Shown piece after piece: positions 4,230 to 56,872 of a DNA stretch of 64,000 nt (the stretch's first letter is position 1; the number at the start of each line of letters is the position of its first letter). The notes under the pieces were generated by a model. That model did not search any database, was not told the DNA's origin, and saw nothing but the letters and a program-made list of their open reading frames with translations. The translations under genes were made by a program, and so were the position numbers. This DNA comes from Bacteroidales bacterium UBA5515 (lineage in GTDB: Bacteria; Bacteroidota; Bacteroidia; Bacteroidales; P3), in the NCBI GenBank assembly GCA_002423895.1, contig DIOL01000035.1:2161-66160 (forward strand), written 5' to 3'.

Positions 4230-4521
4230 TAGTCCTGCTTTTGGATTAGATTAATAAATATTTTTGTTTAATAGATTGATTTTACTCGCTTTGCGAAAGA
4301 GTTCCATAAATGAAAGTCTTATCACTCAGGTTTCAAATACGCTGCAAAGATACAAAAGATTTCTTTAATCAATTATTTTTAAGTAGAAAAATTGTTAAAA
4401 GCTTCATTAAACTCAATCTCTTGCTTATTTCTGATAAATAATAAAGACCTTTAACCAGAAAATCAAAGATTTAAACTAACGAAATGCCGTTTAGAAAAAT
4501 TTTTGCTTGATATAAAACTGA

Positions 4522-4631
4522 TATAATGCCATTAAATGATAAGTATAATGCCATTATACTTCCCATATAATGCCATTAAACCATCAATATAATGGCATTA
4601 TACCGAGAATATAATGGCATTATACTAAAAT
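4522..4631. repeat. Phased palindrome array A: 5 units of TATAATG(C/G)CATTA(TA), period exactly 22 bp
   Basis: Units start at 4522, 4544, 4566, 4588 and 4610. The first three carry a GCC centre and the last two GGC, i.e. the opposite orientation. A degenerate AAACTTCGTTT unit follows in phase at 4633. Confidence 0.9.
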
Positions 4632-4711
4632 TAAACTTCGTTTGATAAGATTTAGATAAGGATTTCTGACATGTATTCCTTATAAATCAGCTTTATAAAT
4701 TGAGGGAAATT

Positions 4712-5932
4712 CTATTTCTCCCTAATTCGAATAACATTAACAAGAGTATCTTTCTTTGTCAGGGTGATGCCATGAGAGGAGTAAAGCATGTTTTTCTTTT
4801 CTTCAAAGGTTTTTTGTTTGTAAAGACGGTTAAAATCTACCCAAACAATATTATTTGAAACTCCTTTTTGAGGTATTATTGTTGGAGTTTCTTCTCTTGA
4901 TGCTATTGTGCCTCTTGAAAGCTCACTACATAAAGCAAATACAGATGTTTTAAAAAGTGGATCTTTGCTTTCCCAATCCTCACCCTTATCAATTATCTTA
5001 TCCCAATCTTTTACATTAAGAACATAAACCTCACGTTTCTCTTTTATAGTATCAATCTTTAAGTCTGTATATTTACACAAATCGTCAATAACCGATTTAT
5101 AATCAATAAAACTATTTGTGTCTTTTTGTTTTACAAGCAAATCATAGTTTCTGAAACTTAAAATTTCATTTTGCTTAATCCAATATGTTTTAGTGTCATA
5201 AGCTCCAATTAGTCTTTCAGCAATAGAACCAAGTGTTGTGTTTTTAAAACTAATTGTTTCTCTTCCAAGTGTATTTGTTTTAACGGAATTATTGCCCCAT
5301 TCCATAGTTGTATTAGTAAAAGTGGCTTTATAAGTTTTTCCTTCAAAATTAATTGGTTTATCGGAATTAAAAAATAATCCCAGAGTAGCAATAGCAACAA
5401 AATTATTTAAAGCATGTGCAATTATGGAGGTGAGAAGATTAAATCTTAGTGTAAGATAGGAGCAAAACAAACCAATCCCAACATATTGAGGGAATGAGAG
5501 GAAGAAACTCATAGGTTGAAGGTTGCCATAATGCAAAGATGCAAAGGTTATTGAACTTAGAATAAGAAAAGAGTATAACCTGAGTTTGGGTTTGTCTTTC
5601 AGGAAAAAGATTATTAATAAGAATAGTACTGAGTATATAATTCCTCCATAAACATTGATTATTAAAACATATACAGTAGAAACTGCAAAACTAATCCAAA
5701 TCCATGCTTTTCTTTTACATGCCCATGAACGGAAAGCAATTTCTTCTGTAATTGGTGCAAAAATCACTGTAAGAAAGAGAACTAATCCCAGAGGTAAGTT
5801 GAAAAGGAACTTATAAATAGGATCATTAAATACATCTTGTTCTTTGTCAAAAAGTGTTCTAAGTAAAACTCCCAAAGCTATTAGGCAAAGAGATATGACC
5901 AATAAATAACGATAGTTTTTCTTTAAGTTCAT
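4712..5932 (-). CDS. CPBP (CAAX/Abi) family intramembrane protease fused to a roughly 210-aa soluble C-terminal domain
   Basis: Multi-TM N-terminal half with the EEIAFRSW and HALNNF motifs of the CPBP family. The C-terminal half is hydrophilic and I do not recognise it. Confidence 0.75.
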   Translation of the reverse strand: MNLKKNYRYLLVISLCLIALGVLLRTLFDKEQDVFNDPIYKFLFNLPLGLVLFLTVIFAPITEEIAFRSWACKRKAWIWISFAVSTVYVLIINVYGGIIYSVLFLLIIFFLKDKPKLRLYSFLILSSITFASLHYGNLQPMSFFLSFPQYVGIGLFCSYLTLRFNLLTSIIAHALNNFVAIATLGLFFNSDKPINFEGKTYKATFTNTTMEWGNNSVKTNTLGRETISFKNTTLGSIAERLIGAYDTKTYWIKQNEILSFRNYDLLVKQKDTNSFIDYKSVIDDLCKYTDLKIDTIKEKREVYVLNVKDWDKIIDKGEDWESKDPLFKTSVFALCSELSRGTIASREETPTIIPQKGVSNNIVWVDFNRLYKQKTFEEKKNMLYSSHGITLTKKDTLVNVIRIREK

Positions 5933-5962
5933 GGTTTTTATTGATTAATTATTATTTTCCAG

Positions 5963-5970
5963 CAAAGATA
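5963..5970 (-). promoter_or_regulatory. -7 box for the CPBP gene
   Basis: CAAAGATA on the plus strand, about 31 nt upstream of the start at 5932. Confidence 0.5.
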
Positions 5971-6032
5971 TATATTTTATTTTAAAAGAAGTATTTAATG
6001 ATAATTTTAAATCAAAAAACCATATAATGTTT

Positions 6033-6374
6033 CTAATTCTCTTTTTCTAAGTCTTTAAGTGCTTTCTTGTTTGATTTTCTTGATGTAAATACAAAGAAAA
6101 GGAATGTAAGAGGGAAGAATTTAATTGTATATGGAGTTCCCATTTCTTTTTCGTAATCAAAATAACCATAAATGCAGATTGAATAATAGATAACAATATA
6201 CGACAAAATAAATATAAGTAAAAACCTGCTTATCTTAATGTTTTGTTTAATGGCTTGAACTGGATTTTGTAGTTTTTTGTAATACTTATTGTAAGGGAAA
6301 TAGTAGATTACAAAATATAAAGCAAGTACAACTATGCTAATAATAATATCTACTAAGCTAAATTGAATATTCAT
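6033..6374 (-). CDS. Small integral membrane protein, unknown function
   Basis: The track ORF starts at a TTG (6407) that overlaps a -7 promoter box. The ATG at 6374 (MNIQFSL...) is the more likely start. Three predicted TM helices. Confidence 0.5.
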   Translation of the reverse strand: MNIQFSLVDIIISIVVLALYFVIYYFPYNKYYKKLQNPVQAIKQNIKISRFLLIFILSYIVIYYSICIYGYFDYEKEMGTPYTIKFFPLTFLFFVFTSRKSNKKALKDLEKEN

Positions 6375-6404
6375 ATCTTTTTTTGATTTATTAATATTTT
6401 CCAG

Positions 6405-6412
6405 CAAAGATA
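6405..6412 (-). promoter_or_regulatory. -7 box for the small membrane protein gene
   Basis: CAAAGATA on the plus strand, 31 nt upstream of the ATG at 6374. Confidence 0.5.
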
Positions 6413-6631
6413 TTGATTTTATTTTAGAAGGAGAGCTTAATGTTAGTTTTTAATGTGTAAACCAAAAATAGTATTAAACCCAAAGAGTGTAAATAGTATT
6501 TAGTATTAATTTCAATTCTGCAAACAATAATAAGGGATAAAAGAAAGGTAAAATCAAGTAAATAACTACAAAAACAAAATCTTAAACTAAATAAACAGGC
6601 TTTCAAACTAATTAAACTTCATTTCAATCTC

Positions 6632-6741
6632 AAAACAATGCCATTGTTTTGTCAAAACAACCGCATTGTTTTAGGCAAACAATGGCATTGTTTTAGTAAA
6701 ACAACCGCATTGTTTTGAGTAAACAATGGCATTGTTTTTAC
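6632..6741. repeat. Phased palindrome array B: 5 units of AAACAA(TGCC/CCGC/TGGC)ATTGTTTT, period exactly 22 bp with a 44-bp higher-order repeat
   Basis: Units start at 6632, 6654, 6676, 6698 and 6720. Segment 6654-6697 is nearly identical to 6698-6741. Confidence 0.9.
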
Positions 6742-6922
6742 ATCAAGTCCTTATAAAAATATTTTAATACTTGATTTAGTGAGATTAAAGTCTTGATAAA
6801 TCAGCTCTATTTCTTGTGTAATTTGATTGTTAAAAGATATATTTGAAAATAGGATAGGAGTTAAGAAATTTTTTCATAATATTGCATTCTATTTAATGGA
6901 AGTTATTTTCTTTAATTAAAGG

Positions 6923-7591
6923 ATGATGATGAAAAACAAAACTTTGATATTAATTTTGATTTGCTTTTTTGCTGTTAACACATTTGCTCAACAATGTGAT
7001 TCATGCAAAAGAGATTTTAAACTTCTATTAATAATAAAAGATAAATCAGAAATAAACTCAACCGATTTGGAAATGAGTTGGGGAATAACAAAGAACCTAT
7101 ATTATATTAAATATACAGATTATATAGATAGCGTTTCAAAAGGGACATCTTATGTTTCTCATAGCCTTACAAGAGTATTTTCAGATATATGTTTAATGGC
7201 TGATAGCATGTTAGGAGTTGATTATTATTTTAAATATTTAAGTTTAATAAATGGCTCTTCTGAAGAAGAACGTTCTTTCGCACTTGAAAGAATTTTTGTT
7301 AAATACCCTGTGATTGTTCTTAATAAAATAGGGGACAACAAAGAATGGCTTAATTATTTAACTTGGGGATTTATAAACAATAGATATTATGGAGCTGTAA
7401 ATCCATATGAAAAGGAAGATTATTCAGCAATGACTATTTATGAAGATTCTCAGAAACCTATCCTAAATAAAGAGAATTGCAGAAAAATATTCTTTGAAAC
7501 AAATCCAATCTTGAAGACAAAGTATAGTCAATATAGATATCAAATAGATTTTATAATAAATACTGCAATTGATAACTTAAAAGATAATTGA
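6923..7591 (+). CDS. Secreted hypothetical protein
   Basis: Signal peptide MMMKNKTLILILICFFAVNTFAQ. I recognise no domain. Confidence 0.55.
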   Translation: MMMKNKTLILILICFFAVNTFAQQCDSCKRDFKLLLIIKDKSEINSTDLEMSWGITKNLYYIKYTDYIDSVSKGTSYVSHSLTRVFSDICLMADSMLGVDYYFKYLSLINGSSEEERSFALERIFVKYPVIVLNKIGDNKEWLNYLTWGFINNRYYGAVNPYEKEDYSAMTIYEDSQKPILNKENCRKIFFETNPILKTKYSQYRYQIDFIINTAIDNLKDN

Positions 7592-7691
7592 GTAAGTAAA
7601 ATATAATAAAGCATTGTATTTTCATAATTGATTAACTTTGCTGAGTGTAATTATAAATAAGAGGATTAAGTGTTTTCTAAAAAATAATAAT

Positions 7692-8615
7692 ATGAAACGT
7701 GTATTTAAGATAATTGTTTTTTGTGCCTTTATAAGTTGTATAGGCTTTCAGTCATTTGCAATAAAACCTGATAGTGTTTATGTGATGCGTCCAGAGAATC
7801 TTGGTTTAATTTATAGAGATTTAAATGTAACAACTTCTGACGGATTGAAGATTAAAACATGGTTTTATCCTGCTCAACCTGCTCTTTCAGAAAAAGAAAT
7901 AAATGAAGCTTGGAATAATCCTGTCAAGAAACCTTATAAAACAATTGATAAAGAACCTCGCCCAACAATAATTATTGCTAATGGTGATGCAGGAAATATG
8001 TCTTACCAGCAAGTGCATTTTGCACTAAATTTTACTTCAAAAGGATATAATGTAGTAACTTTTGATTGGCGTGGTTTTGGAGAAAGCAGTGAGTGGGAGA
8101 TAAATAATGATTATTTAGTTTATTCGGAGTTCTTGCTTGATTATGATGCAGTAATAAAAGAAGTATTAAAACAAAATGAAGAGGTAGATACTAATAGAAT
8201 TGCTGTTTTTGGATGGTCAACAGGAGCATATCTTTCTATGGCAGCATCAAGTAAGTATGATAATATTAAAGCCTTTGTAGGTATTGGCTTAATTACTTCT
8301 TTTGATGATGTGCTTCCTCTTTTAAAACAATTACAAACCCATAAAGATCGTAATTTAATAGTCCCTGATAACTATCCTAAAGAATTATTGCCAGTAAACT
8401 TAGCACCAAACTATAACAAATCAACATTTCTAATAGTTGGAGAAAAAGATAATCGTACACCCGTTTGGATGAGCAAGAAAATATATTCATTACTACCTTC
8501 AAAGAAAGAGTTATGGATAGTTGAAGGAGCAGAGCATGGAGGGCAAAATGGTCCAATAAAAGATTTCAAACTTTTCGATGAAAGATTTATAGAGTTTTTG
8601 GATAAGAACTTGTAG
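7692..8615 (+). CDS. Secreted alpha/beta hydrolase
   Basis: GWSTGA nucleophile elbow (GxSxG), a late Asp, a His in EGAEHG, and a signal peptide from the ATG at 7692. The track start at 7638 is a TTG. Confidence 0.75.
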   Translation: MKRVFKIIVFCAFISCIGFQSFAIKPDSVYVMRPENLGLIYRDLNVTTSDGLKIKTWFYPAQPALSEKEINEAWNNPVKKPYKTIDKEPRPTIIIANGDAGNMSYQQVHFALNFTSKGYNVVTFDWRGFGESSEWEINNDYLVYSEFLLDYDAVIKEVLKQNEEVDTNRIAVFGWSTGAYLSMAASSKYDNIKAFVGIGLITSFDDVLPLLKQLQTHKDRNLIVPDNYPKELLPVNLAPNYNKSTFLIVGEKDNRTPVWMSKKIYSLLPSKKELWIVEGAEHGGQNGPIKDFKLFDERFIEFLDKNL

Positions 8616-8730
8616 AGATTAATAAAATTTGAGAAAGAAGTATTTATATAAAATAATTACATTTTCAGTTGAGAAATTGTGATAAATAGTAAATAAATAT
8701 AATTGAAGACTAATAAAATTACGATATAAT

Positions 8731-11649
8731 ATGGAAATTCCAAAATCACTTATTGAGAAAATGAATAAAAATCAACTTGTAATCTTTGCAGGTGCAGGAT
8801 TGTCAATGAATGCAGGTCTTCCAAGTTGGATTGATTTAATTAATGGCATACTCGATGATTTAGGAGATAAAGAACCTAAAAAAGATAAGTACAAGGACGC
8901 ATTAAAGGATGAAATAATGACTCCTTTAGAAGTACTCAATAAAATTGAAATTCACAAGGAATTTGTTATTGAAGCGATAGATAAAATAATTAGAGGCTTT
9001 GATGATGTTAAGCCAAGTCGATTATTTAATTATATAGGAGAAATTTCAACAAAGATAATCACTACAAATTATGATTATATTTTAGAGTCCATTTATAAAG
9101 ATTTTGAAAAAGTTGTATATAATAATTCATTTAAAGTTTCTAAACTATCAAACTATGAAAAATATATTTTTAAAATTCATGGAGATATTCAAGAACCAGA
9201 TAAATGTATATTATTCTCTTCTCAATATGAAGAATTATATATTAAAAATGAGCAATCATCAATTTTTGAATTAAAAAAAATAATATCAGATAAATCAATA
9301 CTTTTTCTTGGTTTTAGTCTAAATGACCCATACATCAATTTTGTTTTTGATTTTGTAACTAAAATTTATGGTGGTTTCACCCCTGAACATTTTATAATTA
9401 CTACTGAAAAAGAAAATAAATGGCCAAATAGAATTACTCCAATAAAAATCAATACTTACTCTGAAATAGAATCTTTTTTATCAGAATTATCTAAAGAGAA
9501 AAATAATCAAGAAAATAAAGAAGAAACATTAGTGGCAAAACTAAATGATAATCATCATCATAATAATATTATTGATTTGACTGAATCTCTTGAATATGAT
9601 TTGCCACCAAACAACAAGTTTTGGGTTGGAAGAAGAAAAGAAATAGAAAATATCTCTGTTGATATATTTAAAGTGATTTTTATTACAGGTATTGGAGGTC
9701 AAGGTAAATCAGCACTCGCAGCATATTATGTAAAGAATTGTTTTGATGCCAAACTGTTTGAATATGCTGATTGGAGGGATTTCAAAGAGGAAACAAATAG
9801 ATTTCAGACAAAACTAATTTCTATAATTAAAAGAATTTCTAATAATCAAGTTACAGCAAATCAATTAGAATGTGTAAGAAACAATGAATTAGTTGATTTG
9901 TTTTTTAAGTGTTTATCTGATAAAAAAATAATATTTGTTTTTGACAATATTGACAGTTATATAGATTTGGAAACTTTTACACCAAGTGGAGGAATGAAGT
10001 ATTTTTTTGAACAAGCATTAGAAATAAATCATAACTCTAAATTTATCTTTACATGTAGACCATTTATTCGAGAAGCTAGTTCAAACTTTTATCAACTTAC
10101 TCTTTCAGGTTTGTCAGAAAAAGAAACTGAAGAAATTTTTTCATTATACAATATAAATATCTGTAAAGAACAATTAAAAGAATTAAGCAAAAAAGCATAT
10201 ACACTCACAAAAGGACATCCTTTATGGTTAAATCTTATAGCAGCTCAAGCATTAAGAGGTTTTGAAACAGTGAACAAATTTATTCAAAGTATTGAAGATA
10301 AAACTGATTTCAATGAAGAAGGATTTTCTTCAATACTTTCGGAAAAAATTTTAAATGAAGTATGGTACTCTCTCAATAATAAGCAACAAACATTACTTAG
10401 GGGAATTGCAGAAACTGTAAAGCCAGAAACACTCTCTAATTTAAAGAAAATAATGGAATCTGAACTTAATGTTAATCAACTTGATAAAGCATTTAAAGTT
10501 TTGAAGAATTTGAACTTAATTGAACTAAAATCATCTGATATAAGTGAAGATCAAATTGAATTACATCCTCTAGTAAAAGAATTTATATCTTTGAAATTTC
10601 CAAAAACTGAAAGAGCAAAATTCATCACGTTACTAGTCCAATATTATGATAGGTTTATTTATATATTGAAACCGCAACTTAGTTCTAATATGAGTTTATC
10701 TGATTTTCAAAATTGGACATCCAAAATAGAATTACAGATAAACAAAGGGGATTTTAAATCTGCTTTAGTAGCTTTAGAAGAAGTATCAGCATCAATTATA
10801 TCAGCAGGATTTTCTGAAGAATATTTAAGGGTTTCAGAGAGATTATTTAATTCTGTTGATTGGAAATTAGCAATTGGTAATGAGTATCCATATTTTGAAA
10901 CTCAATTTGATACACTTACACAAGTTATGACACAATATGGTAATTTCAACGATTGTGAATTATTATTAGAAAAATATTCTAAATTAATTAATGGGAAAAG
11001 TTCAAAATACTTATCTTATTGCAGTGGAAAATGTTATTTATATTGGTATCAAGAAAAATTCAATGAGGCTATTGAAATTGGAGAGTATGGTCTTTTTTTG
11101 ATTAATAATTCAGGTATTTCTGATAATTATTCACTTAGACACAATTTAGCATTAGCAAGAAGGGACTCTAAAATAGATAAAAATATAAAAGAAGCATTAT
11201 TGTATTTTCTTAAAGGGGAAAATTTAGAAAATATAATTAATAATGTGAATGTAGATTTAGGAGGTCATTTCTATGGAAATATTGGTAAGTGTTTAGAACT
11301 TCTTAATGATAAAGTAAATGCATTGACTTGTTATTATATATCGTTTTCCATATTATGTAACGAAGATAATAATAATTCGAAGTTAAATTTAGGCTATGCT
11401 GCATCTTGGATTTATAGCATACTTAAGGATACGAAAAATAAATTAGATTCGCTATACTTTTTAAAACTGAGTATTAACATTTGGGAACATTCTTCACCTC
11501 CTAGAGCAGATAAAATGAAGAAAGAATGGAAAAATTTCATTATTGATAAACAGACAAAACAAGAAATTGAAAAGATTCCTGATTGGAAGATAGCTAATTA
11601 CTGTAAGGAAAAATCAAAAACTTATATTGGTAGTGGTTTTGTAAAATAA
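8731..11649 (+). CDS. SIR2-like effector fused to a STAND/NB-ARC NTPase and a helical-repeat (TPR-like) sensor; Avs-like antiphage candidate
   Basis: N-terminal SIR2_2-type motifs FAGAGLSMNAGLPSW, TTNYD, KIHGD and LGFSLND (aa 15-215). P-loop GIGGQGKS at aa 320-326 (nt 9688-9708) and Walker B IIFVFDNID around aa 400. The C-terminal 450 aa or so are helical-repeat-like. Confidence 0.85.
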   Translation: MEIPKSLIEKMNKNQLVIFAGAGLSMNAGLPSWIDLINGILDDLGDKEPKKDKYKDALKDEIMTPLEVLNKIEIHKEFVIEAIDKIIRGFDDVKPSRLFNYIGEISTKIITTNYDYILESIYKDFEKVVYNNSFKVSKLSNYEKYIFKIHGDIQEPDKCILFSSQYEELYIKNEQSSIFELKKIISDKSILFLGFSLNDPYINFVFDFVTKIYGGFTPEHFIITTEKENKWPNRITPIKINTYSEIESFLSELSKEKNNQENKEETLVAKLNDNHHHNNIIDLTESLEYDLPPNNKFWVGRRKEIENISVDIFKVIFITGIGGQGKSALAAYYVKNCFDAKLFEYADWRDFKEETNRFQTKLISIIKRISNNQVTANQLECVRNNELVDLFFKCLSDKKIIFVFDNIDSYIDLETFTPSGGMKYFFEQALEINHNSKFIFTCRPFIREASSNFYQLTLSGLSEKETEEIFSLYNINICKEQLKELSKKAYTLTKGHPLWLNLIAAQALRGFETVNKFIQSIEDKTDFNEEGFSSILSEKILNEVWYSLNNKQQTLLRGIAETVKPETLSNLKKIMESELNVNQLDKAFKVLKNLNLIELKSSDISEDQIELHPLVKEFISLKFPKTERAKFITLLVQYYDRFIYILKPQLSSNMSLSDFQNWTSKIELQINKGDFKSALVALEEVSASIISAGFSEEYLRVSERLFNSVDWKLAIGNEYPYFETQFDTLTQVMTQYGNFNDCELLLEKYSKLINGKSSKYLSYCSGKCYLYWYQEKFNEAIEIGEYGLFLINNSGISDNYSLRHNLALARRDSKIDKNIKEALLYFLKGENLENIINNVNVDLGGHFYGNIGKCLELLNDKVNALTCYYISFSILCNEDNNNSKLNLGYAASWIYSILKDTKNKLDSLYFLKLSINIWEHSSPPRADKMKKEWKNFIIDKQTKQEIEKIPDWKIANYCKEKSKTYIGSGFVK

Positions 11650-13850: not shown

Positions 13851-14106
13851 ATGAATTTTACTTTACTTTTCACTTCGTGGCTCTCGACCTTCGGTCTTCG
13901 GGTGTCTTGATACAAAAGTAACAAAAAATCAAGACTGTTCACAAATAAACTAAAAATTGAAGCCTTGAACTAAAAATTTATAAACTCGCCTTTGGCTCAA
14001 ACATATAAACTTTCTTTACGTTCAAAACTTCAATTTTCTTTACGCATATTTGTAAAATGTCGGTTGGTTTGTATTTTGGAGTTTATTTGTTGGTTTATGA
14101 TTATGG

Positions 14107-25137: not shown

Positions 25138-25220
25138 AAGATGCACATCTTTTATAGTGAAAGATGTGCATCTTTTGGTATGAAAGATGTGCATCTTTGG
25201 GGTAAAAAGTCTTCGTTTAA
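25138..25220. repeat. Phased palindrome array C: 3 units of AAGATG(CA/TG)CATCTT, period 23 bp, plus a terminal AAGTCTTCGTTT unit
   Basis: Dyad centres lie at about 25144.5, 25167.5 and 25190.5. Unit 1 is inverted relative to units 2 and 3. Confidence 0.85.
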
Positions 25221-25387
25221 TAAGTTTTTTATAAGGAGTTTGTAGATTTATTCGCCGTTTACGCAGAATTATTCCCTATTTAATTTTAAATAATAAGGAT
25301 TATTTACCAAGAAAGTCTTTTTGATTCTCAAAAAAGACAACCATATTCCATTTAAGAAAAGAAATAAAAATAAATATAAGTTAAGAA

Positions 25388-25472
25388 TTAACACTATTTA
25401 AAAATATTTCCCTACCTTTGAACATTAATAATAAATATAAGTTATTAATGAATAAGTATAGAATTGAAAATC
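25388..25472 (+). repeat. Promoter/leader module P1 (direct repeat of P2)
   Basis: About 85 bp that aligns to 30060-30146. Shared sequence runs ACTATTT..AAAATATTT..CT..TTTGA...AATAATAAATATAAGTTATTAATGAATAAG..GATTG.AAATC. It includes a TAccTTTG -7 box at 25413-25420. Confidence 0.8.
25413..25420 (+). promoter_or_regulatory. -7 box TAccTTTG of the island cassette operon (inside P1)
   Basis: TAnnTTTG consensus, 138 nt upstream of the ATG at 25558. Confidence 0.5.
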
Positions 25473-25485: not shown

Positions 25486-25539
25486 AGTGCGTGATTACTT
25501 ATCGACTTTGTCGCTTTGCAAAGCAAAGAAATCCCAAAC
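25486..25539 (+). repeat. Inverted repeat R, left copy
   Basis: AGTGCGTGATTACTTATCGACTTTGTCGCTTTGCAAAGCAAAGAAATCCCAAAC matches the reverse complement of 29785-29840 at roughly 85 percent by eye. The core TTTGCAMAGCAAGAAATC also occurs at 26390-26407. Confidence 0.8.
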
Positions 25540-25557: not shown

Positions 25558-26283
25558 ATGAGAAAATATTTAATTTTATTATTGTCATGCTTTTTAATTA
25601 CAGCATGCATTAAATCAAAAGTAGAATTAGAAGATTTAAATACTATTTGTTTTAAAATATCTGAAAGAGCATGTGATAATGCATATAGATATAAAAAATA
25701 TCAAGACAAAGAAGCTCTTGCATTATCTTTTAAACAATGTGATTCTATCATTTATGGCGGATGTGATGTTAATGCAATAGGATCAGCAATACATATAAAG
25801 TTTAATCTATATTTTTGGACTAAACAATACAAACAAGCATTAGATGAAATAGAAAAATTAAGGACCAGAGATGATATTTTTTGGGATGCTAATTTCCCCA
25901 GCTCAACTTATTATAAATTATTAATACAAACATTCTGGGCTAATGATAGAGGAGAAATAGAAGAACGCAACCATTATATAAAACAAAATATTGCTTTTAT
26001 GGATGCTTGCTTTAATGCTTATAATGAGGTTAAATACGCAGATATAAAAAAAAATCTAAAAGAAGTAGATTTAGCAGACGCAGAAATTCATCATGTTAAA
26101 AAAGACTATATGAGTTTAGTTACATATTATTCAATAAAATCATTGCTATATAAAAAAGAAGATCTTTTGGAAGAAATAAAAAATATAAAAGTAGAAAAAC
26201 CTTTAGAGGAATTTTATTCTCTTGAAGATTATATAAAGAAACTAGACACAAATTTGTATTGGAAAGAGGAAAATTTATTTTAA
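25558..26283 (+). CDS. Helical lipoprotein, unknown function (island cassette 1)
   Basis: Lipobox LITAC. The ORF is followed by the conserved inter-cassette repeat X. Confidence 0.6.
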   Translation: MRKYLILLLSCFLITACIKSKVELEDLNTICFKISERACDNAYRYKKYQDKEALALSFKQCDSIIYGGCDVNAIGSAIHIKFNLYFWTKQYKQALDEIEKLRTRDDIFWDANFPSSTYYKLLIQTFWANDRGEIEERNHYIKQNIAFMDACFNAYNEVKYADIKKNLKEVDLADAEIHHVKKDYMSLVTYYSIKSLLYKKEDLLEEIKNIKVEKPLEEFYSLEDYIKKLDTNLYWKEENLF

Positions 26284-26296
26284 GTAGGGTAGTTGG

Positions 26297-26380
26297 TAAT
26301 GTATCAGATTGGGAGCCTTATTTAGTGAAGAGTTAAAAACTAAAAGTTAAAAGTGATAGGAAAACAATGGATTACTAATC
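26297..26380 (+). repeat. Inter-cassette repeat X, copy 1
   Basis: TAATGTATCAGATTGGGAGCCTTATTTAGTGAAGAGTTAAAAACTAAAAGT...GGATTACTAATC, starting 14 nt after the stop of cassette 1. Confidence 0.8.
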
Positions 26381-27081: not shown

Positions 27082-27627
27082 ATGAAAAAAATAGCAATAA
27101 TAATATTTTCAATCATTGGTATTTCAGGTTGTTATATGATTTACCCACTTGAGAACGAATCTCGAAATGTTTTTGATTTAGATGATTATACTGAGACAAA
27201 ATACGAAGTATCGTTGCAATTTGGTATAAATAGTTGGATGACTCCTGACGAGAATTATGGTAAATACTCTGATACACTAGATAGATTAAAATATATATTT
27301 AGTATACCTTGTCCAGAACTTCCTTTAGTAAAGCTAAATTCATTTACTTTTACAAGGCAAAAAGACAAGGATACAATCCCAACCATATTTTATGTATGGG
27401 GAGGAAAGGGGGAGACATTATTGATTGATAGCTTGCCTGTTAGTTTTGATAATAAAATAAAAGAAAAGATTCAATCTTTTTCAATTATTGCTGAGAGTAA
27501 TGCTCCATTTCGTGATATAGATAGTGTTTATATAAATTACAATATACAAGTAGGGAAGGATACAATTATAAAAAGTATTTTTTATAAACGAACTCTACGA
27601 AATGGATCAAAGTGGTTAATGTGGTAA
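27082..27627 (+). CDS. Lipoprotein, unknown function (island cassette 3)
   Basis: Lipobox GISGC. Followed by the second copy of repeat X. Confidence 0.55.
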   Translation: MKKIAIIIFSIIGISGCYMIYPLENESRNVFDLDDYTETKYEVSLQFGINSWMTPDENYGKYSDTLDRLKYIFSIPCPELPLVKLNSFTFTRQKDKDTIPTIFYVWGGKGETLLIDSLPVSFDNKIKEKIQSFSIIAESNAPFRDIDSVYINYNIQVGKDTIIKSIFYKRTLRNGSKWLMW

Positions 27628-27632
27628 TTGAT

Positions 27633-27717
27633 TAATGCATCAGAAAAGGAGCCTTATTTAGTGAAGAGTTAAAAACTAAAAGTGAAAAGTGATGGAAAAA
27701 CAACGGATTACAAATCC
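27633..27717 (+). repeat. Inter-cassette repeat X, copy 2
   Basis: TAATGCATCAGAAAAGGAGCCTTATTTAGTGAAGAGTTAAAAACTAAAAGT...GGATTACAAATCC, starting 6 nt after the stop of cassette 3. Confidence 0.8.
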
Positions 27718-29225: not shown

Positions 29226-29413
29226 TGTAATTATATTGCTTTAATAATTAATTCTATTGAGATAATATTCTATCCTATTTATTGTTTAACCTATTTTCTA
29301 TTCGGTTTTTTATAAGACTTTATAAGGGAGAAAATTGATATGCTTTTTCAATTTTATAGTAAGTGTGGTTTATAAAAGATAATATTAAATGAGAAAAATT
29401 AATTATCTTTTTG

Positions 29414-29529: not shown

Positions 29530-29760
29530 AGACTTCTTGTTTTTGAAACGAGACTTCTTCTTTTTACTTTTAGACTTCTTGTTTGTAGTCAATAAGTCTG
29601 ACTTTTGTTATCAAAAAGTCTGACTTATTGGGTTGAAAAGTCTGACTTTTTATATTGAAAAGACTGACTTTTTAGGTAAGAAAGACTGACTTTTTGGGTA
29701 TAATAACTTCTTCTAAAAGTATAATAACTTCTTCTAAATGTAAAATTAGGAAGTTATTGT
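29530..29760. repeat. Phased array D: about 10 units in four sub-families, period 21-22 bp
   Basis: AGACTTCTTGTTT at 29530, 29551 and 29572. AAGTCTGACTT at 29594, 29616 and 29638. AAGACTGACTT at 29660 and 29682. ATAATAACTTCTTCTAAA at 29700 and 29721, with an inverted partner GGAAGTTATT at 29749. Confidence 0.85.
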
Positions 29761-29858: not shown

Positions 29859-29952
29859 AAAGTTAACCAAGTTAATCAAGTTAATCAAAAATGAAAAGTA
29901 TTTCAGAATAGAAAATACAATACTTTTTAAAACAAGTTAACTTGGTTAACTT
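29859..29952. repeat. Nested palindrome between R(right) and P2
   Basis: Perfect 16-bp arms: AAGTTAACCAAGTTAA at 29860-29875 and TTAACTTGGTTAACTT at 29937-29952. They enclose a 9-bp inner inverted repeat, AAAAGTATT at 29894 and AATACTTTT at 29919. AAGTTAA is also repeated three times with a 9-bp period. Confidence 0.8.
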
Positions 29953-30059
29953 CATTAACTATTTTAAACAAGATTTAAAATGCAGTAATGTTTCAATCTA
30001 ATTTTCCCCCTGCAATTATCTTTTCTTCAATACCTATATAGCTAATATTTTATTGATTA

Positions 30060-30146
30060 ATTAATACTATTTTGAAAATATTTACTTATCTTTGACGAGC
30101 AATAATAAATATAAAGTTATTAATGAATAAGCATTGGATTGCAAAT
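30060..30146 (+). repeat. Promoter/leader module P2 (direct repeat of P1), upstream of the MFS-M20 operon
   Basis: See P1. The -7 box TAtcTTTG lies at 30086-30093. Confidence 0.8.
30086..30093 (+). promoter_or_regulatory. -7 box TAtcTTTG of the MFS-M20 operon (inside P2)
   Basis: TAnnTTTG consensus. Confidence 0.5.
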
Positions 30147-30251
30147 CACGTACAACGTAAAAGCAATGAAATTATTCACGACGTAAATCTAAATTTATTA
30201 AAATAACGATATAGAAAGATACAATAAATAAACAATTAAAAACTAATAATT

Positions 30252-45427: not shown

Positions 45428-45648
45428 ATCAAGATATTTCGTCCTGCAACTTGATTATTTTGTCGTCAGACTTGATTATTTTGTCCTCAGAAGGCTTCCT
45501 TATGCTCTATAAAGCCGCTTTTTAACCAGAAAAAGTGGCTTTTTTGGGTGAAAAAAGCGGCTTTGGAGACCTCCAACTCTTGATTAAAATCCTAAAAGAT
45601 CAAGTCTAAATTCTAAATAATCAAGTTCCAGAACAAAATATCTTGATA
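45428..45648. repeat. Phased array E: about 220-bp imperfect palindrome built from about 10 units of 21-22 bp (MITE-like)
   Basis: The left arm ATCAAGATATTTCGTCC plus 2x CTTGATTATTTTGTC is mirrored on the right by AAATAATCAAG and GAACAAAATATCTTGAT. The centre holds three AAAGC(C/G)GCTTT / AAAAGTGGCTTTT dyads at 45516, 45537 and 45559. The symmetry axis lies at about 45537. Confidence 0.85.
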
Positions 45649-49413: not shown

Positions 49414-49435
49414 TAAACATATAGTATGTATATAA

Positions 49436-49693: not shown

Positions 49694-49830
49694 ATTCTTT
49701 ATTTTTGCCGTTTATCCATTTATATAAACGGATTGTGTTAATGTATTTCTGTAAAATAACAAATTTTCAGCTTGCAAAGATATAAATAATAATTTATATT
49801 GCAATAGCGTTGATGCAAATTTTATTATTT

Positions 49831-51810: not shown

Positions 51811-52000
51811 ATTAATTTGTGTTAGAATGAGTTTTGCCAAAACATAACCTGAGGCAAACTCTTAAATTGGTTAAATCTACATTTATTATAAATTAGTGTT
51901 ATAAAAATATAAGGATGCAAAAATAGTAAAATTTTCTTTTAAACAAATTATTTATAGTATATTTGCAACCACAACTAAAATATAATTTGATAAACATACT

Positions 52001-52795
52001 ATGAAAAAAGCCTTATCAATAATAATTGTAGCATTAATTTGTTTTACACCATCATTTCTATTTTCTCAAAAGAAAGGATTGAAAGTTGAAATAGAAAACA
52101 TTAGCCTTAGAGCTCCAGAACACTATTTAGTTAACAGGACACAAAAGAAGATGTATGGCTTTACTGTTAAACTTTACAATGAAACAAATAATAATCAAGT
52201 TGTAGTTAGTTGCATTAAGAAAGCAATGAACCAAGAGGCAGCAATAATGGAGGCTTCATCCGAAAGAAGTCTTAAGCCAGGATATGAATATATGATTATT
52301 GAAAAAGTTAAATCAAAACCACTTGGAAAATATAATGCCAAATTTGTAGAATACACCAATAGCCCACTTCGAGACTATTTTAGAGGAGGATATTATGGAA
52401 TTATTGATAATGGATATACCTATGTTGTGGAATACTACTCAGTCGACACACCAGAAGACAGGCAAGAGGTAGAGAAAATTCTTTCTTCTCTTAATATACT
52501 TAAACCAGAATCACGTCCTAATTTCTTTGAAGTAGAAAAGGAATACTTAGTTGAGGATGTATCAGTAAAGAAGCCTGAAGAAAATGCTGACGACAGCAAA
52601 ATGGAAGAAGAAGATTCAGCCAAAGAACCAAAGATAGAAAAAAGCAAAAAAGAATCTAAAACCCAAGTTCAAGAGATAACTCATGAAATTCCAGAAGTAG
52701 CTCCAATAGCTGAAATAAAAGATGAACCAACACAAGAAAAGAAATCTTTTTGGACAAAGATAACTTCAATCTTTAAAAAGAAAGATAAGAAATAG
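52001..52795 (+). CDS. Secreted protein with a Glu/Lys-rich tail
   Basis: Signal peptide and a low-complexity acidic/basic C-terminus. Confidence 0.55.
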   Translation: MKKALSIIIVALICFTPSFLFSQKKGLKVEIENISLRAPEHYLVNRTQKKMYGFTVKLYNETNNNQVVVSCIKKAMNQEAAIMEASSERSLKPGYEYMIIEKVKSKPLGKYNAKFVEYTNSPLRDYFRGGYYGIIDNGYTYVVEYYSVDTPEDRQEVEKILSSLNILKPESRPNFFEVEKEYLVEDVSVKKPEENADDSKMEEEDSAKEPKIEKSKKESKTQVQEITHEIPEVAPIAEIKDEPTQEKKSFWTKITSIFKKKDKK

Positions 52796-52927
52796 ACTTG
52801 ATTTGTCTTTCTTTATAGTCATAATTCGATTATTCTTCAAATTATAAGTCCCCCTAAATCTTGCAAGCTGATAATAATTATCAAATAAGCATGCAAAATT
52901 TCTCAAAAAAGCTTATTTCATAAATAA

Positions 52928-53071
52928 AAAGATAGGCTTATAGCATCAAAAAGATAAGATCTTTTGACAAAATAACGGCGTCTTTGACTATTAAAGATCT
53001 CGTTATTTGATTAAAAGATGTCGTTATTTATCCTCAAGATGTTTTTATTTGTGGTAAAGATATAGTAATTT
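52928..53071. repeat. Phased array F: about 7 units related to AAAGATNNCGTTATTT, period 21-22 bp
   Basis: Units start at 52928, 52950, 52970 (inverted: AAATAACGGCGTCTTT), 52993, 53014, 53035 and 53056. Confidence 0.75.
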
Positions 53072-53735
53072 GCACAAATAGAATTGAAATTAACTCCATT
53101 TCTAAAAAAGATTTATTATTAATATTTAATTTCTAAAATCAATAAAGAAGAACAATCTGCTTTTTCTTAAAAAATCTTATTTTAATACTATTTGTGATTG
53201 AAAAGATTCACAAAATGGAAAATTAATTTAATATATTATTAGAGGTAAAAAAACAAGAATATTTCCAATTAAAATTTAAAAATATTTCCAAAAAATTTGT
53301 TTTATAAAAATAAAGATATACATTTGCAACTTGAACTTGAATTTTAATAATAATGATAAGATTATCTAATGTATTATTTTTTAACCCAGCTTATAATAAA
53401 AGATTATTAGCTGTATATTCAAGTTTAATTATTTTAATTTTGACATATCCTATTGTTAATAAATACCTTTATATTAAAATTAATTTCTATTTAAGTATGT
53501 ATGGTATTTTCTATTTGGGGAAGAACAACTTCGTAAAATAAGGAACTTTGGTTGCTTAACTACTCCCAATCTCTTGCCAAAGTTCCATAAATAATAAGCC
53601 CAAGAAGCAAAAGAGAAGCTCAATTTATAATACAGAAATAAAGATATTCACTTTCTACAATTAACTTAACCTTTTCAAAGAATATCTTTAGTTATAAATC
53701 CCCTAAGAGTATTTATTAATTAAAAATTTATAGAG

Positions 53736-54851
53736 ATGAAAAACATCAAAAAAATAATATTCATAGCTTTATTAGCTATATTTGCAGTAGCATGTACAAA
53801 TGAAGAAGATTTTACATCTAATTCTTCAGATACAACATTCAATAAAAAGACTATAATTCAAGGAGAAAGTAATCCTTATGCGTATTTTGAAGATAAAACA
53901 TTTACTGATGTGCAACTTGAAGATATGCTTGGAGTGTTTAATAATGCAGTAAATAATAATAATGTTACAATGCCAGATTATGATATTCCTACTGCATTGG
54001 CAAATATGGAGTTTCATTTTAATTATGGTGTAGTTGTAAAATTACCATATAACAAAGATGCTACTCATTACGATAAGTTAACATTTACCTTTAGTGTGCC
54101 AATTGTAAATAATATTATCAATGGAACTGTACTAAAAAATGCTTATATTAATTTTGTTAATAGTATTATTACACAAATGGCAGGTAAGAATTTAGAATTA
54201 TCCGATATTTATGTGAAAGATTATTCTTCAACGTTAGTCACCTTTGGTTTAGATATGGAACCAATACTTGTGCCTGAAGGAGCCGATGATGCTTATATTC
54301 CAGCCTTTATAAAAGTTAAAGATCTTAATTCAATAACCATACCAGCTGAAGTAACTTCTAGATGGGATAACCTTCCTTCATGGAGTTTAATTCTTCCTCC
54401 TGGTTATCCAAGTGATCCATACTATGAAAGAGCTGCATTTGAATCAGTTGTTAATTATTATTCTTTCGAAAGAATACCGATCAATTATAATGTAGTAGGG
54501 AAAGAACTTATATATGGACATTTTAGAGAAAACTATGATAAAGCAAATGTTAAAGATATGTATGTTTATAATACAGGAAGTACTGTGATTTGGAATAGTC
54601 AATCAATCAATGATTTTGTTAGAGAATCAATAATTCAGGCAAATGTTCTTAATCAATATGCTTCAGATGGTTTTGTTGTTTATAGTTTTGTGCCTGCTGT
54701 ACATTTTACTAAAAATTATGTGACTCCTGAAGGTCTTAAAGATAAGTACCAACTAAGAGTTCAGGATGTTAGATCTGCCAAACTTAGCTATTTAGATATT
54801 AATTCTTTGTTTATGGCCAATGTTACTTCTCCAATGATTGAGATTAATTAA
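53736..54851 (+). CDS. Lipoprotein, unknown function
   Basis: Lipobox FAVAC. A hairpin follows at 54858-54884. Confidence 0.6.
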   Translation: MKNIKKIIFIALLAIFAVACTNEEDFTSNSSDTTFNKKTIIQGESNPYAYFEDKTFTDVQLEDMLGVFNNAVNNNNVTMPDYDIPTALANMEFHFNYGVVVKLPYNKDATHYDKLTFTFSVPIVNNIINGTVLKNAYINFVNSIITQMAGKNLELSDIYVKDYSSTLVTFGLDMEPILVPEGADDAYIPAFIKVKDLNSITIPAEVTSRWDNLPSWSLILPPGYPSDPYYERAAFESVVNYYSFERIPINYNVVGKELIYGHFRENYDKANVKDMYVYNTGSTVIWNSQSINDFVRESIIQANVLNQYASDGFVVYSFVPAVHFTKNYVTPEGLKDKYQLRVQDVRSAKLSYLDINSLFMANVTSPMIEIN

Positions 54852-54857
54852 TTATTA

Positions 54858-54884
54858 GGGGCTAATATTTATTATATTAGCCCC
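54858..54884 (+). terminator. Hairpin after the 53736-54851 lipoprotein gene
   Basis: GGGGCTAATA/TATTAGCCCC stem. The downstream T-run is weak. Confidence 0.5.
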
Positions 54885-54906
54885 TTGTCAATATATAATA
54901 TTTACT

Positions 54907-56394
54907 ATGAAAAATAATATTATTTTGATCCAATTATTATTGATAATAAGTATAGGATTACAAGCACAAACTTTTACAGAAATTTATAGAGGAGATTATT
55001 ACAAGATAAAAGGTATTACAAATGAAGGAAATAATACATTAAATGTTTTTAATAACTTTGATGAAGAAGAACTATTTATTTCTTCTTATGGATATCCTTC
55101 AGATACAATGTTGTATTTTTTAATTAATGATAATTTAGATGTTGTAAAAAGATATGAGTTTAATAGAAATTTCATCTTTCCTTATTTATGTGTTCTGAAT
55201 AATAAAATTTATGGATTGAGAGGAGATTATGTGTGGACTAATTATTACTATATAGAAAATCTATGGCTTTTAATGTATGATAGTGTTGAAAATGTATTGC
55301 ATAAAGATACAATAATGAAATATAATGATGATACATTAAAATGGACAGAGCTCAAACAATGGGTACTTAAAGATAGAAATATAATGTTGTCATTGGAGAG
55401 TTATCCAAAAACGGCAGCAGATCCACTGGAAGGAGGCTCAATAGCAACAAAACTAATAAAGATAGATACATTGGGCAATGTTTTAAAAACAAAGATATTC
55501 TACCATAAATGCTTGACTGTTGATTTTGGAGAAATGCCAAACCATTACATGTATGCCATTAATGGCTCAAATTGGGGTTTGGATTCTATGCAGAAGCAAT
55601 GTGCAGTTTATTATCTCAACAAGGAAACTTTAGAAATAGAAGATAGTATTAAAGGTTATGATGTCCAGCAACTAACACCAATAAATGATTCAATTTTTGC
55701 CTTTACTTATTTTGGAGGCTCAGGTTTTTCAATAAATGATACAATATCTGTTTATAATCTAATGAATATAAATACTAAGAAAGTTACACCAGTAAAAACA
55801 CGTAACTTAAGTTCTTCAGGAAGTAATATGTTTTTTTCAACATATTCTGATTATGAATTGATTGATTTTAAAAGAACAGACTCTATTTATGCAGCCTATA
55901 TTGTAAGATATAGCGGATTAGATTTTAATAATTCAAATATAGAGTTTACAAATTTTAATATAAATGGAGATACAAATTTTACTTTTAAGATAAACTATGA
56001 TAATGGAAAGTTTAAACAGATACAAGGAGTTAAGGCAACAAAAGATGGAGGAGTAATTATTGCCGCATTATCAGATGAAGATGATGCTTGGCTAATAAAA
56101 TTCAAACCAACTGGCTTAATTAATCTAACTAATATTGAAACAGGGGAGAAGGAATCAATAAAAGTTTATCCTAATCCTGCTAAGGATTTTGTTTATGTTG
56201 ATATAGAAGCAACTAATTTTGAAAAGGGAGAAATAGAGTTATATGATATGCAAGGAAAGTTAGTTAAGAAAGCTAAGTTAAGTGCTAAGCTTGGAAATAG
56301 GGTTGATGTTTCTAAGCTTAATGCAGGAGCTTATACTTATAATGTTTCTCTTAATGGAAAAACTATTAGTGGAAAATTTATTGTTGGGAAGTAA
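54907..56394 (+). CDS. Secreted protein with a T9SS C-terminal sorting domain
   Basis: Signal peptide and a C-terminal VYPNPAKDFVYV...GAYTYNV...GKFIV domain. Confidence 0.7.
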   Translation: MKNNIILIQLLLIISIGLQAQTFTEIYRGDYYKIKGITNEGNNTLNVFNNFDEEELFISSYGYPSDTMLYFLINDNLDVVKRYEFNRNFIFPYLCVLNNKIYGLRGDYVWTNYYYIENLWLLMYDSVENVLHKDTIMKYNDDTLKWTELKQWVLKDRNIMLSLESYPKTAADPLEGGSIATKLIKIDTLGNVLKTKIFYHKCLTVDFGEMPNHYMYAINGSNWGLDSMQKQCAVYYLNKETLEIEDSIKGYDVQQLTPINDSIFAFTYFGGSGFSINDTISVYNLMNINTKKVTPVKTRNLSSSGSNMFFSTYSDYELIDFKRTDSIYAAYIVRYSGLDFNNSNIEFTNFNINGDTNFTFKINYDNGKFKQIQGVKATKDGGVIIAALSDEDDAWLIKFKPTGLINLTNIETGEKESIKVYPNPAKDFVYVDIEATNFEKGEIELYDMQGKLVKKAKLSAKLGNRVDVSKLNAGAYTYNVSLNGKTISGKFIVGK

Positions 56395-56432
56395 GTAATC
56401 CAAATTTGTTTTTTCTTTAATTATCTATACTT

Positions 56433-56520
56433 AAATCCAAATTACGCAGTAGAAATTTTCATTAGGCTATGGGATTATCCTATTGTTCTATCTGTAAAAT
56501 TTACTGCATAATTTGGATTT
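56433..56520. repeat. Long inverted repeat (about 26-bp arms, about 36-nt loop) downstream of the T9SS gene and left of array G
   Basis: AAATCCAAATTACGCAGTAGAAATTTT at 56433-56459 pairs with AAAATTTACTGCATAATTTGGATTT at 56496-56520. Confidence 0.8.
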
Positions 56521-56580
56521 TATTTGATATAAGTGTACCAAATCCTTATTACAGTTTAAAAATATAAGATATAAATTTCG

Positions 56581-56683
56581 TATGGTACGACCATAATGCA
56601 ATTATGGTCGTACCATAACTTAGTTATCATGCCACCATAAACTCATTATGGTACGACCATAACTAAATTATCATGACACCATA
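56581..56683. repeat. Phased palindrome array G: 5 units of TATGGTACGACCATA / TATCATGCCACCATA, period exactly 22 bp with a 44-bp higher-order repeat
   Basis: Dyad centres lie at 56588, 56610, 56632, 56654 and 56676. The ACG/CGT centre flips between units. Confidence 0.9.
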
Positions 56684-56872
56684 CAGAATTTATTCCTTGT
56701 TTAAATAAATTTTTACTTGATTTCAGTAAATTTATTCATGATATAAATAAATTCTTATCTAAGATAAATTTACTTTTTATTGGATTTAAATAGGCGTAAT
56801 TAGTCTCTCAAATGCTTATTAAAGCAAATGTTTTTTATTTCTATAAGTAGAAGGAGAAATAGGGGGATATTA

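Follow-up and report, generated by a model that had tools for sequence, protein, structure and literature searches.

The stretch of DNA analyzed here, 64,000 nucleotides of contig DIOL01000035.1 from the Bacteroidales bacterium UBA5515 (positions 2,161 to 66,160; below, the window), carries in its intergenic regions seven arrays of short tandem units, A to G, phased at 21 to 23 bp. The window has a G+C content of about 30% and is densely coding, and Pfam assigns its proteins to ordinary chromosomal genes, including recG, lon, dnaX, rpmE, a sigma-70 gene, hydG with a TM1266-like gene, trkAH, and several genes for cargo proteins of the type IX secretion system (T9SS). Across the 14.2 kb compared, a 203-kb metagenomic contig of anaerobic-fermentation origin matches it with 100% identity. 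The relatives of the window are metagenome-assembled genomes of uncultured Bacteroidales, one of which is a complete chromosome of 2.69 Mb (OY782678.1). Eight related loci (about 170 kb, from seven such genomes) were used for comparison, seven of them recovered via Lon (Lon protein identity of 83 to 99%), along with an outgroup of 170 kb from other Bacteroidota recovered with the same probe; sequences other than the window are given by L numbers.

All seven arrays lie where a preliminary description of the window had placed them, and Tandem Repeats Finder (TRF) recovered each, along with four smaller arrays of the same period (Table 1). Each of the seven intergenic regions longer than 300 bp, the largest in the window, holds one of the seven. 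The arrays hold 2 to 11 units, each made of a core of 11 to 19 bp and a spacer of 3 to 8 bp, and the core is mostly a near-perfect dyad set between an A run and a T run. The phasing at about 22 bp was borne out, with core starts exactly 22 bp apart in A, B, D1, and G, 23 bp apart in C, and 21 bp apart in D0, D2, E, and F. Some details had to be revised. Among the orientation flips listed in the description, CAC/GTG and ACG/CGT are genuine center inversions, but GCC/GGC comes down to the one base in the middle of TATAATG-C/G-CATTATA, a palindrome whose arms are 7 bp long. Likewise, the direct repeats that it reported are present as direct runs in F and D2, but these runs are closed by an inverted unit, and array E has to be taken as a whole, as an inverted repeat, each arm of which is in turn built of 21-bp direct repeats.

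TABLE 1 Phased arrays, sub-arrays, and terminal units in the window
Feature	Position	Strand	Description
Array A	4522..4624	none	5 units, exactly 22 bp (4522/4544/4566/4588/4610); core TATAATG-C/G-CATTAWA with 7-bp arms and 1-nt center; variable spacer of 7-9 bp
Terminal unit after A	4633..4643	+	AAACTTCGTTT; in phase
Terminal unit before B	6614..6624	+	AAACTTCATTT; in phase; reads AAACTTCGTTT in L001, L039, and L042
Array B	6633..6737	none	5 units, 22 bp (6633...6721); 44-bp super-period; AAACAATG-S-CATTGTTT alternating with AAACAACCGCATTGTTT; spacers of 3-4 bp
Array C	25138..25218	none	3 units, 23 bp; AAGATG-CA/TG-CATCTT; unit 1 reverse-complementary to units 2-3
Terminal unit of C	25208		AGTCTTCGTTT
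Sub-array D0	29530..29584	+	3 direct units, 21 bp; AGACTTCTTGTTT
Sub-array D1	29594..29692	none	5 units, 22 bp (29594...29682); AAGTC-T-GACTT between A and T runs; predicted curvature in top 0.3%
Sub-array D2	29700..29758	+	2 direct units, 21 bp; ATAATAACTTCTTCT; inverted closing copy AGGAAGTTATT at 29748
Array E	45428..45648	none	Imperfect inverted repeat, 220 bp; left arm ATCAAGAT... plus 2 copies of CTTGATTATTTTGTC at 21 bp
Array E, center			3 dyads, AAAGCCGCTTT / AAAGTGGCTTT / AAAGCGGCTTT; right arm carries inverted ...ATCAAG units
Array F	52949..53071	none	AAAAGATAAGATCTTTT at 52949; inverted unit AAATAACGGCGTCTTT at 52970; 4 direct units AAAGATSTCGTTATTT at 21 bp (52993, 53014, 53035, 53056), decaying distally
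Array G	56581..56683	none	5 units, 22 bp (56581...56669); TATGGT-ACG/CGT-ACCATA x3 interleaved with TATCATGCCACCATA and TATCATGACACCATA
AT-rich array beside G	56687..56753	none	About 3 units, 21-bp period; conserved in relatives; found by TRF
Minor array	13997..14044	none	2 units, 24 bp; found by TRF
Minor array	29228..29267	none	About 2 units, 21 bp; in the intergenic region of D; found by TRF
Minor array	53248..53291	none	About 2 units, 23 bp; in the intergenic region of F; found by TRF

A periodicity scan of the kind that the preliminary description had proposed, applied to the window and the related loci, gave a strong signal. Identical 8-mers recurred in the window 35, 68, 50, and 29 times at lags of 21, 22, 44, and 66 bp, respectively, compared to about 4 per lag in Markov-1 shuffles. 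The lag spectrum of the related loci peaked at 21 (139), 22 (137), 23 (64), and 44 bp (106), and in window and relatives alike the peaks lay at 21 to 23, 42 to 44, and 63 to 66 bp, while no peak at 21 to 23 bp was seen in the 170 kb of other Bacteroidota. TRF reported periods of 21 to 24 and 42 to 44 bp for window and relatives, with a modal period of 21 bp, that is, 2 x 10.5 bp or two turns of B-DNA. Inverted arms that match perfectly over 7 bp or more were present in 11 of 26 unit types from window and relatives, the chance rate being 2%, and about 40% of the types were repeated directly only. Since arrays made purely of direct repeats exist, dyad symmetry is frequent but not obligatory.

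The cores proved to be as locus specific as first described: within the window each is confined to its own locus, and in about 190 kb of related sequences the window cores were found at the orthologous loci only. Array density is around one per 6 to 9 kb. The arrays are real, statistically strong, and lineage-wide, and they are best read as a lineage-specific class of intergenic minisatellites with a fixed period of 21 to 23 bp, a locus-specific core, and a free spacer. In keeping with the definition of a minisatellite, or variable-number tandem repeat, their units stand head to tail within the range of about 10 to 100 bp, and copy number differs between strains at B, E, and F.

The arrays had initially been assigned to no described repeat class, and no match emerged from Rfam, from plasmid and phage collections, from the criteria for repetitive extragenic palindromes (REP) and bacterial interspersed mosaic elements (BIME), for miniature inverted-repeat transposable elements (MITE), or for CRISPR, or from the literature, in which locus-specific dyad arrays phased at 21 to 22 bp were not found described. 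The nearest described element is BrickBuilt of Porphyromonas gingivalis, also a member of the Bacteroidales, a 23-nt minisatellite MITE found at 19 strictly intergenic loci in 1 to about 23 copies; 22- and 41-nt tandem repeats have also been noted in that species (PMC4596501). Intergenic location, tandem units of about 23 nt, strain-variable copy number, and a mixture of conserved and variable positions within the unit are common to both. However, BrickBuilt has one unit at all loci, a leader and a tail, IS5-like terminal inverted repeats, and no spacer, whereas the arrays of the window have a core for each locus, unique flanks, mostly dyads, and evolve in place.

Iterons (R6K, pPS10, RK2, and the lambda origin) and type Ib/II centromeres have cores of 14 to 19 bp with short variable spacers at a spacing of about 22 bp, 3 to 10 units on one helical face. 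The likeness to iteron and operator arrays that the preliminary description had drawn was structurally apt. The phasing of such repeats (about 17 to 22 bp long at about 22-bp intervals) and the layout of mixed direct and inverted units are found here as well. Unlike these arrays, iterons and centromeres lie beside their cognate rep or par genes on a replicon; here at least seven arrays with different cores are spread over 64 kb of ordinary chromosome. A plasmid or phage iteron or centromere was rejected on the basis of this housekeeping context, the absence of Rep and Par domains from the window by Pfam, and the lack of plasmid or phage similarity.

CRISPR repeats measure about 23 to 48 bp, with unique spacers of similar or greater length, and are accompanied by a leader and cas genes. 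CRISPR was rejected because the cores here are shorter (11 to 19 bp, with spacers of 3 to 8 bp), the repeat differs at every locus, and Pfam finds no cas genes in the window. ToxI-like RNA repeats of type III toxin-antitoxin systems, about 36 nt long and directly upstream of the gene for a toxin endoribonuclease, fit neither the period of 21 to 23 bp nor the surroundings, there being no ToxN-like gene beside any array by Pfam. REP and BIME are extragenic palindromes tagged with GTAG/CGTC, for which roles in supercoiling, termination, and mRNA stability have been proposed (PMC3733652). They resemble the arrays as extragenic, hairpin-forming palindromes that are often clustered, alternate in orientation, and have variable linkers. 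They differ in that one tagged palindrome is spread over tens to thousands of loci, usually with a RAYT gene, while the arrays are locus specific, untagged, and strictly phased at 21 to 23 bp. No core is dispersed over loci in the window or in the approximately 190 kb of relatives, the GTAG/CGTC tag is in none of A to G, and no RAYT or transposase gene was present among the window open reading frames scanned with Pfam. A separate array, L011 21712-21774, has 23-bp units whose core, CTACGGTGTACACCGTAG, ends in CTAC...GTAG, as REP elements associated with RAYT typically do, a tag seen in none of the arrays of the window.

The preliminary description had taken the arrays for one diverged family, constant in its scaffold and hypervariable in its core, which would make them a dispersed mobile family of the MITE, REP/BIME, or BrickBuilt-like kind, the last being a precedent in the Bacteroidales (PMC4596501). 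The flanks, however, contain no alignable scaffold beyond chance. No score above shuffle expectation was obtained in 168 Smith-Waterman comparisons of the ±130-bp flanks, and blastn-short among the seven intergenic regions returned 11- to 15-mers at chance level only. Terminal inverted repeats, target duplications, and a common leader or tail are lacking, and only motifs of 7 to 11 nt recur. Comparison of filled and empty sites argued in the same direction, as B differs from L001 by 88 bp, corresponding to four units, within the flanks, with one unit left. The arrays thus fail the defining tests of ordinary REP, BIME, or MITE copies.

The shared flank motifs of the description fared unequally. 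A TCCTTATAAA-like motif and AAACTTCGTTT do recur: the former is enriched in the ±80-bp array flanks relative to other intergenic DNA (TTATAAA, 17 observed versus 4.65 expected, 12 loci), and an in-phase AAACTTCGTTT unit adjoins A, B, and C as well as both sides of an unrelated array in L012, next to which lies an array composed of the AAACTTCGTTT unit itself. TTTAACCAGAAAA occurs at chance frequency and was discarded. ACTTGAT and ATAAGGA, although 6- to 10-fold enriched in the window, were only 2- to 3-fold enriched at independent loci (n = 3 each) and were not clearly replicated. The idea that the flank motifs ATCAAG...TTA are IHF-like (WATCAANNNNTTR) was dropped, only 2 of about 7 sites being matched by eye. 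Modules also recur within cores, namely, AATGSCATT in A, B, and the L012 210-288 array and AAAC...GTTT arms in B, L043, L012, and the terminal unit. Two arrays of L043 that lie 6.9 kb apart (1163-1224 and 8022-8083) have one core, GAAACGCYGTTTC, and part of the spacer in common (62 nt, 71% identity). They bracket the segment from recG to a Na+/H+ antiporter gene, much as A and B, with AATGSCATT, bracket a two-gene operon of the window.

A weaker form of the family reading survives, in which a few short motifs recur beside nonorthologous arrays and some cores share modules. A mobile family as such we consider extremely improbable, given that the cores are otherwise unique to their loci, that B is polymorphic by whole units inside conserved unique flanks and not by insertion of an element, that no transposase or RAYT was found in the window, and that orthologous loci show rebuilding in place between unique conserved flanks.

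This rebuilding was apparent from the orthologue comparison that the preliminary description had suggested, in which unit copy number and presence varied between relatives at A, B, E, and F. Array B has five units in the window, four with the same two-type alternation in L042, and a single one in L001 and L039, where the 88-bp difference (4 x 22) lies inside conserved flanks and the neighboring genes are the same. Array A occurs only where strains are at least 92% identical, and L042, L043, and L045 lack it; in the three strains compared (the window and the orthologues in L001 and L039), CCGGG, GGGGG, and GCGGC are the series of center bases, and two spacers are exchanged, while the arms are the same. 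One or two extra genes of unknown function stand between the Rce1-like gene and A in these orthologues (L001 8901-9539 and L039 3141-4474), array A staying with the hydG-operon side.

At the site of array G, L014 to L016 carry four to five nonpalindromic units, CCTGCCACCTTACA, in the orientation opposite to that of the window, with flanks and the 22/44-bp period kept. In the window, three units are palindromized to TATGGTACGACCATA with two units of the old type between them, the new units being palindromized copies of the old right half. This rewriting of the core took place within about 6% genome divergence. The central dyads of E number three, four, or one among orthologues. In L012, both arms of E are changed together at five or more positions to a different unit, and, as judged by eye and from single-sequence folds, they still pair almost perfectly. 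The distal units of F vary among relatives in number and sequence, L015 having more, while the proximal units, the inverted one included, are conserved. In L016, a perfect (CATA)10 microsatellite (4612-4651) replaces part of the intergenic region of F. Arrays C and D are without informative orthologues, because a scan of metagenomes for relatives of the C/D region recovered only one distant locus, in which the arrays are not present.

Template switching is known to homogenize the arms of inverted repeats and to invert their spacers (PMC8604942, PMC8794818, PMC7202029). Whole-unit copy changes, palindromization, center inversion, and concerted arm change are the known signatures of in-place slippage or unequal exchange and of quasi-palindrome template switching, and it is therefore likely that the arrays arise and are remodeled where they sit, by these processes, and are not transposed. 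Template switching accounts for the arm homogenization, center inversion, and perfected hairpins seen here between strains (PMC7202029, PMC8604942, PMC8794818). Nevertheless, it is a mutational process and not a class of element, and alone it leaves the two-turn phasing and the lineage restriction unexplained.

The arrays could also be nothing more than a by-product of such processes, functionless traces of a mutational bias of the lineage in which slippage and hairpin-templated switching, perhaps owing to a changed replication or repair enzyme, keep making and homogenizing duplications of about 21 to 22 bp wherever noncoding DNA tolerates them. Center inversion and palindromization, as known template-switch signatures (PMC8604942), would then be expected, as would the rapid turnover (the narrow distribution of A, the rewriting of G, the collapse of B) and the several sub-arrays per spacer at D, E, G, L012, and L043, which recall a mutational hot spot. 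The placement of the arrays agrees with this as well. Seventeen arrays examined were distributed over divergent, tandem, and convergent spacers as 3, 9, and 5, or 0.66, 0.67, and 1.3 per kb; none is in coding DNA, and they account for the longest intergenic regions. This similar density in all spacer classes indicates that the arrays are tied neither to promoters nor to terminators.

Sequence conservation is harder to reconcile with a by-product. Within arrays, cores are near-identical and spacers are about half diverged, and between species the B cores evolve slower than the flanks: from the window to L042, they are identical at 72 of 75 positions, compared to 3 of 11 for the spacers and about 83% for the flanks. 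Conservation is likewise higher in the proximal part of F than around it. Under neutral concerted evolution, core substitution would not be expected to fall below the rate of the flanks, and we know of no enzymatic basis for a purely mutational ruler of 21 to 23 bp. A functionless origin is, in our judgment, unlikely.

Conserved cores could alternatively be homotypic operator clusters, with one dimeric or oligomeric regulator for each core family and tandem duplication providing cooperative sites on the same face of the helix. The units resemble classical operators in being dyads of 11 to 19 bp, and the center of G, TGGTACGACCA, resembles boxes of the FadR/GntR type. The conservation of the B cores, the nonpalindromic variant included, over about 17% flank divergence speaks for operators, as do the cores that return at second loci (AATGSCATT in A, B, and L012 210-288; GAAACGCYGTTTC twice in L043) and the L012 210-288 array, which precedes an operon with a TetR-family gene. 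With about 100 regulators and few arrays for each, mostly unique cores would be expected in 64 kb. When promoters are predicted by the -7 box of Bacteroidetes, TAnnTTTG, divergent ones flank both B and D, A, C, and F are 170 to 280 bp upstream of one, and E and G are situated at 3' ends. The distance to the TAnnTTTG boxes downstream is 100 to 560 bp for A, B, C, D, and F, yet 5 of the 17 arrays examined lie in convergent spacers, between genes where there is no promoter.

Tandem operator boxes, dyad or direct, whose spacing of 21 to 22 bp allows cooperative binding on one helical face include the ARG boxes of ArgR (18 bp plus 3 bp), pho boxes (22 bp), and the direct repeats of LytTR and AraC regulators (21 bp); TetR operators and plasmid iterons are comparable. 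In these known cases 2 to 4 boxes follow a genome-wide consensus and have a known regulator, while here 3 to 11 boxes have a consensus that changes with the locus, at promoterless sites too. One array per 6 to 9 kb, each with its own core, would amount to hundreds of arrays, far above the multisite operators of any known bacterium. By Pfam, no regulator or other DNA-binding gene stands beside the seven arrays of the window, and an all-against-all BLAST of the window proteins yielded no family tied to arrays. The rewriting of G and the replacement of the E arm units in L012 are unlike conserved regulon sites. In L001 and L039, B has shrunk to a single unit beside unchanged neighboring genes. 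Operators are thus a doubtful explanation for the arrays.

The preliminary description had named a multihairpin RNA as an alternative, and each array indeed folds as one long nested hairpin, with z scores of -5.7 to -10 relative to shuffles. As RNA or as transient single-stranded DNA, such a hairpin of 21- to 22-nt modules might act in 3' untranslated regions as a terminator, a REP-like stabilizer of the 3' end, or an RNase III substrate. Spacers would be loops and cores would be stems, accounting for the contrast in conservation, and the arms of E covary between species. A, C, E, and F lie 29 to 210 nt after a stop codon with no convincing terminator between, which makes transcription of these four plausible. 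The terminators of this genome consist of an A run, a stem of 10 to 15 bp, and a T run, and the array units resemble shortened forms of them.

Other results do not fit an RNA. B and D lie between divergent promoters, and divergent spacers are not depleted of arrays. The strand difference in folding energy equals that of shuffles, reflecting composition, and is therefore uninformative on a transcribed strand. RNAalifold on five E orthologues found no compensatory pairs, the right arm of L012 being misaligned in this comparison. The stems are not followed by a U tract, and hairpin function explains neither the fixed sum of core and spacer of 21 to 23 bp nor the arrays of direct repeats only. A known RNA family was rejected, the whole window being without an Rfam 15 match at the gathering score; matches to microRNA-precursor-like hairpins, on A and B, were weak and below threshold. 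A role at the RNA or single-strand level hence appears improbable.

The lengths of core and spacer compensate each other, so that their sum is 21 to 23 bp throughout. This fits a constraint on the double helix, such as same-face binding or coherent bending, and fits hairpin loops less well. It is possible, and we propose it tentatively, that the arrays function as an architectural or binding platform of double-stranded DNA that is read by its symmetry, phase, and repetition. Slippage or unequal exchange together with intrastrand template switching would build and homogenize the arrays, which would then be kept under a constraint on core identity and period, not on any single sequence. The resulting row of like dyads on one helical face would form a bent, cruciform-prone stretch of duplex that separates transcription units. 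An architectural protein, a nucleoid protein, or dimeric binders might read it there by symmetry, shape, and repetition. The similar array density in all spacer classes, the position of B and D between divergent predicted promoters, and the excess of perfect dyads among the unit types speak for a role of the duplex. Predicted curvature is in part consistent with such a platform. In the Bolshoy-Trifonov wedge model, the top 0.5% of the window includes B, C, D1, the center of E, and F, F ranking first (the most curved 88-bp segment) and E second; in the De Santis model, the same range is reached by the center of E, D1, and F, with C at 0.54% and B at 2.4%.

Several points weigh against the platform. 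The parameters of both wedge models were validated on the A4T4 versus T4A4 contrast only, and A and G are of ordinary curvature in both; with 5 of the 7 arrays extreme, intrinsic curvature was rejected as a universal explanation. Purely direct, dyad-free arrays occur at G in L014 to L016, at D0, and at several places in relatives. Presence in every intergenic class is also what would be expected of tolerated junk DNA, and the position of A, C, E, and F behind stop codons, described above, likewise counts on the other side. Finally, the nonpalindromic variant of B (AAACAACCGC...) is conserved in sequence across species, for which a sequence-specific reader would fit better than a reader of shape.

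A bolder version of the platform, which seems to us quite improbable, would have a dedicated factor, protein or ribonucleoprotein, recognize two-turn-phased dyads whatever their sequence, making the arrays a genome-wide architectural "satellite" between transcription units that insulates, buffers supercoiling, or anchors the nucleoid. Concerted homogenization of the arrays might be driven by this factor as well, or by an enzyme that partners with it. In a more radical variant, phased small RNAs about 22 nt long would be made from the long modular hairpins.

Other features were noted near the arrays. In the convergent spacer beside G, an 88-nt imperfect hairpin (56433-56520) lies 39 nt past the stop codon of a T9SS-cargo gene; it is kept in L014 to L016 and is probably a bidirectional terminator. 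Next to A, on the minus strand, the leader (4230-4350) between a predicted promoter (-7 box end at 4352) and the TM1266-like/hydG operon is conserved down to relatives with 82% protein identity, with the blocks ...TTTGTATCTTTGCA..GTATTTGAAACCTGAG...AAGCGAGTAAAATCAATC... in L042, L043, and L045. It is a candidate cis-regulatory leader and has no match in Rfam. Between A and B, an 85-bp repeat (5928-6012 and 6370-6454, 81% identity) covers the starts of two consecutive minus-strand genes, encoding an Rce1-like protein and a 124-amino-acid membrane protein.

Upstream of the genes at 25558 and 30252, the intergenic regions of C and D have in common an 89-bp segment (25386-25472 and 30059-30147, 83% identity), in which a promoter of the Bacteroidetes type (TTTG ... 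TAyCTTTG) is found together with the beginning of a leader. In inverted orientation, a 54-bp segment (25486-25539 and 29840-29788) is also common to both regions. The region of D also contains, upstream of a gene for a major facilitator superfamily transporter, three tandem 9-bp AAGTTAAYC repeats that face, across about 47 bp, three inverted copies, GTTAACTTS (29860-29888 and 29936-29960), a separate symmetric structure with another period. A dispersed 94-bp repeat (26288-26380 and 27623-27716, 87% identity) directly follows two small uncharacterized genes (25558-26283 and 27082-27627), and a 166-bp repeat (13903-14068) overlaps the minor array at 13997-14044 and has a second copy (91% identity) on the same contig, at L002 16187-16350. 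The plus-strand gene at 8731-11649 encodes a 972-amino-acid protein with SIR2-like and NB-ARC/STAND NTPase domains, whose N terminus matches the models of the antiphage defense proteins ThsA, LmuA, and Dsr1. Being present in the source strain and missing from L001, which is about 92% identical, it is a strain-variable defense gene.

The arrays would be bacterial repeats in which period and symmetry are conserved and the sequence is free, a logic known from eukaryotic satellites and, to our knowledge, not from bacterial intergenic DNA. As close strains show template switching and slippage in progress, they offer a natural system in which to follow the birth of dyad sites and hairpins. The arrays are usable as hypervariable strain markers in metagenomes and are a likely source of assembly breaks, the contig ends of L012 and L006 lying inside arrays. 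If a protein that reads them exists, it would represent a new nucleoid or regulatory layer in one abundant uncultured group of Bacteroidales from anaerobic digesters.

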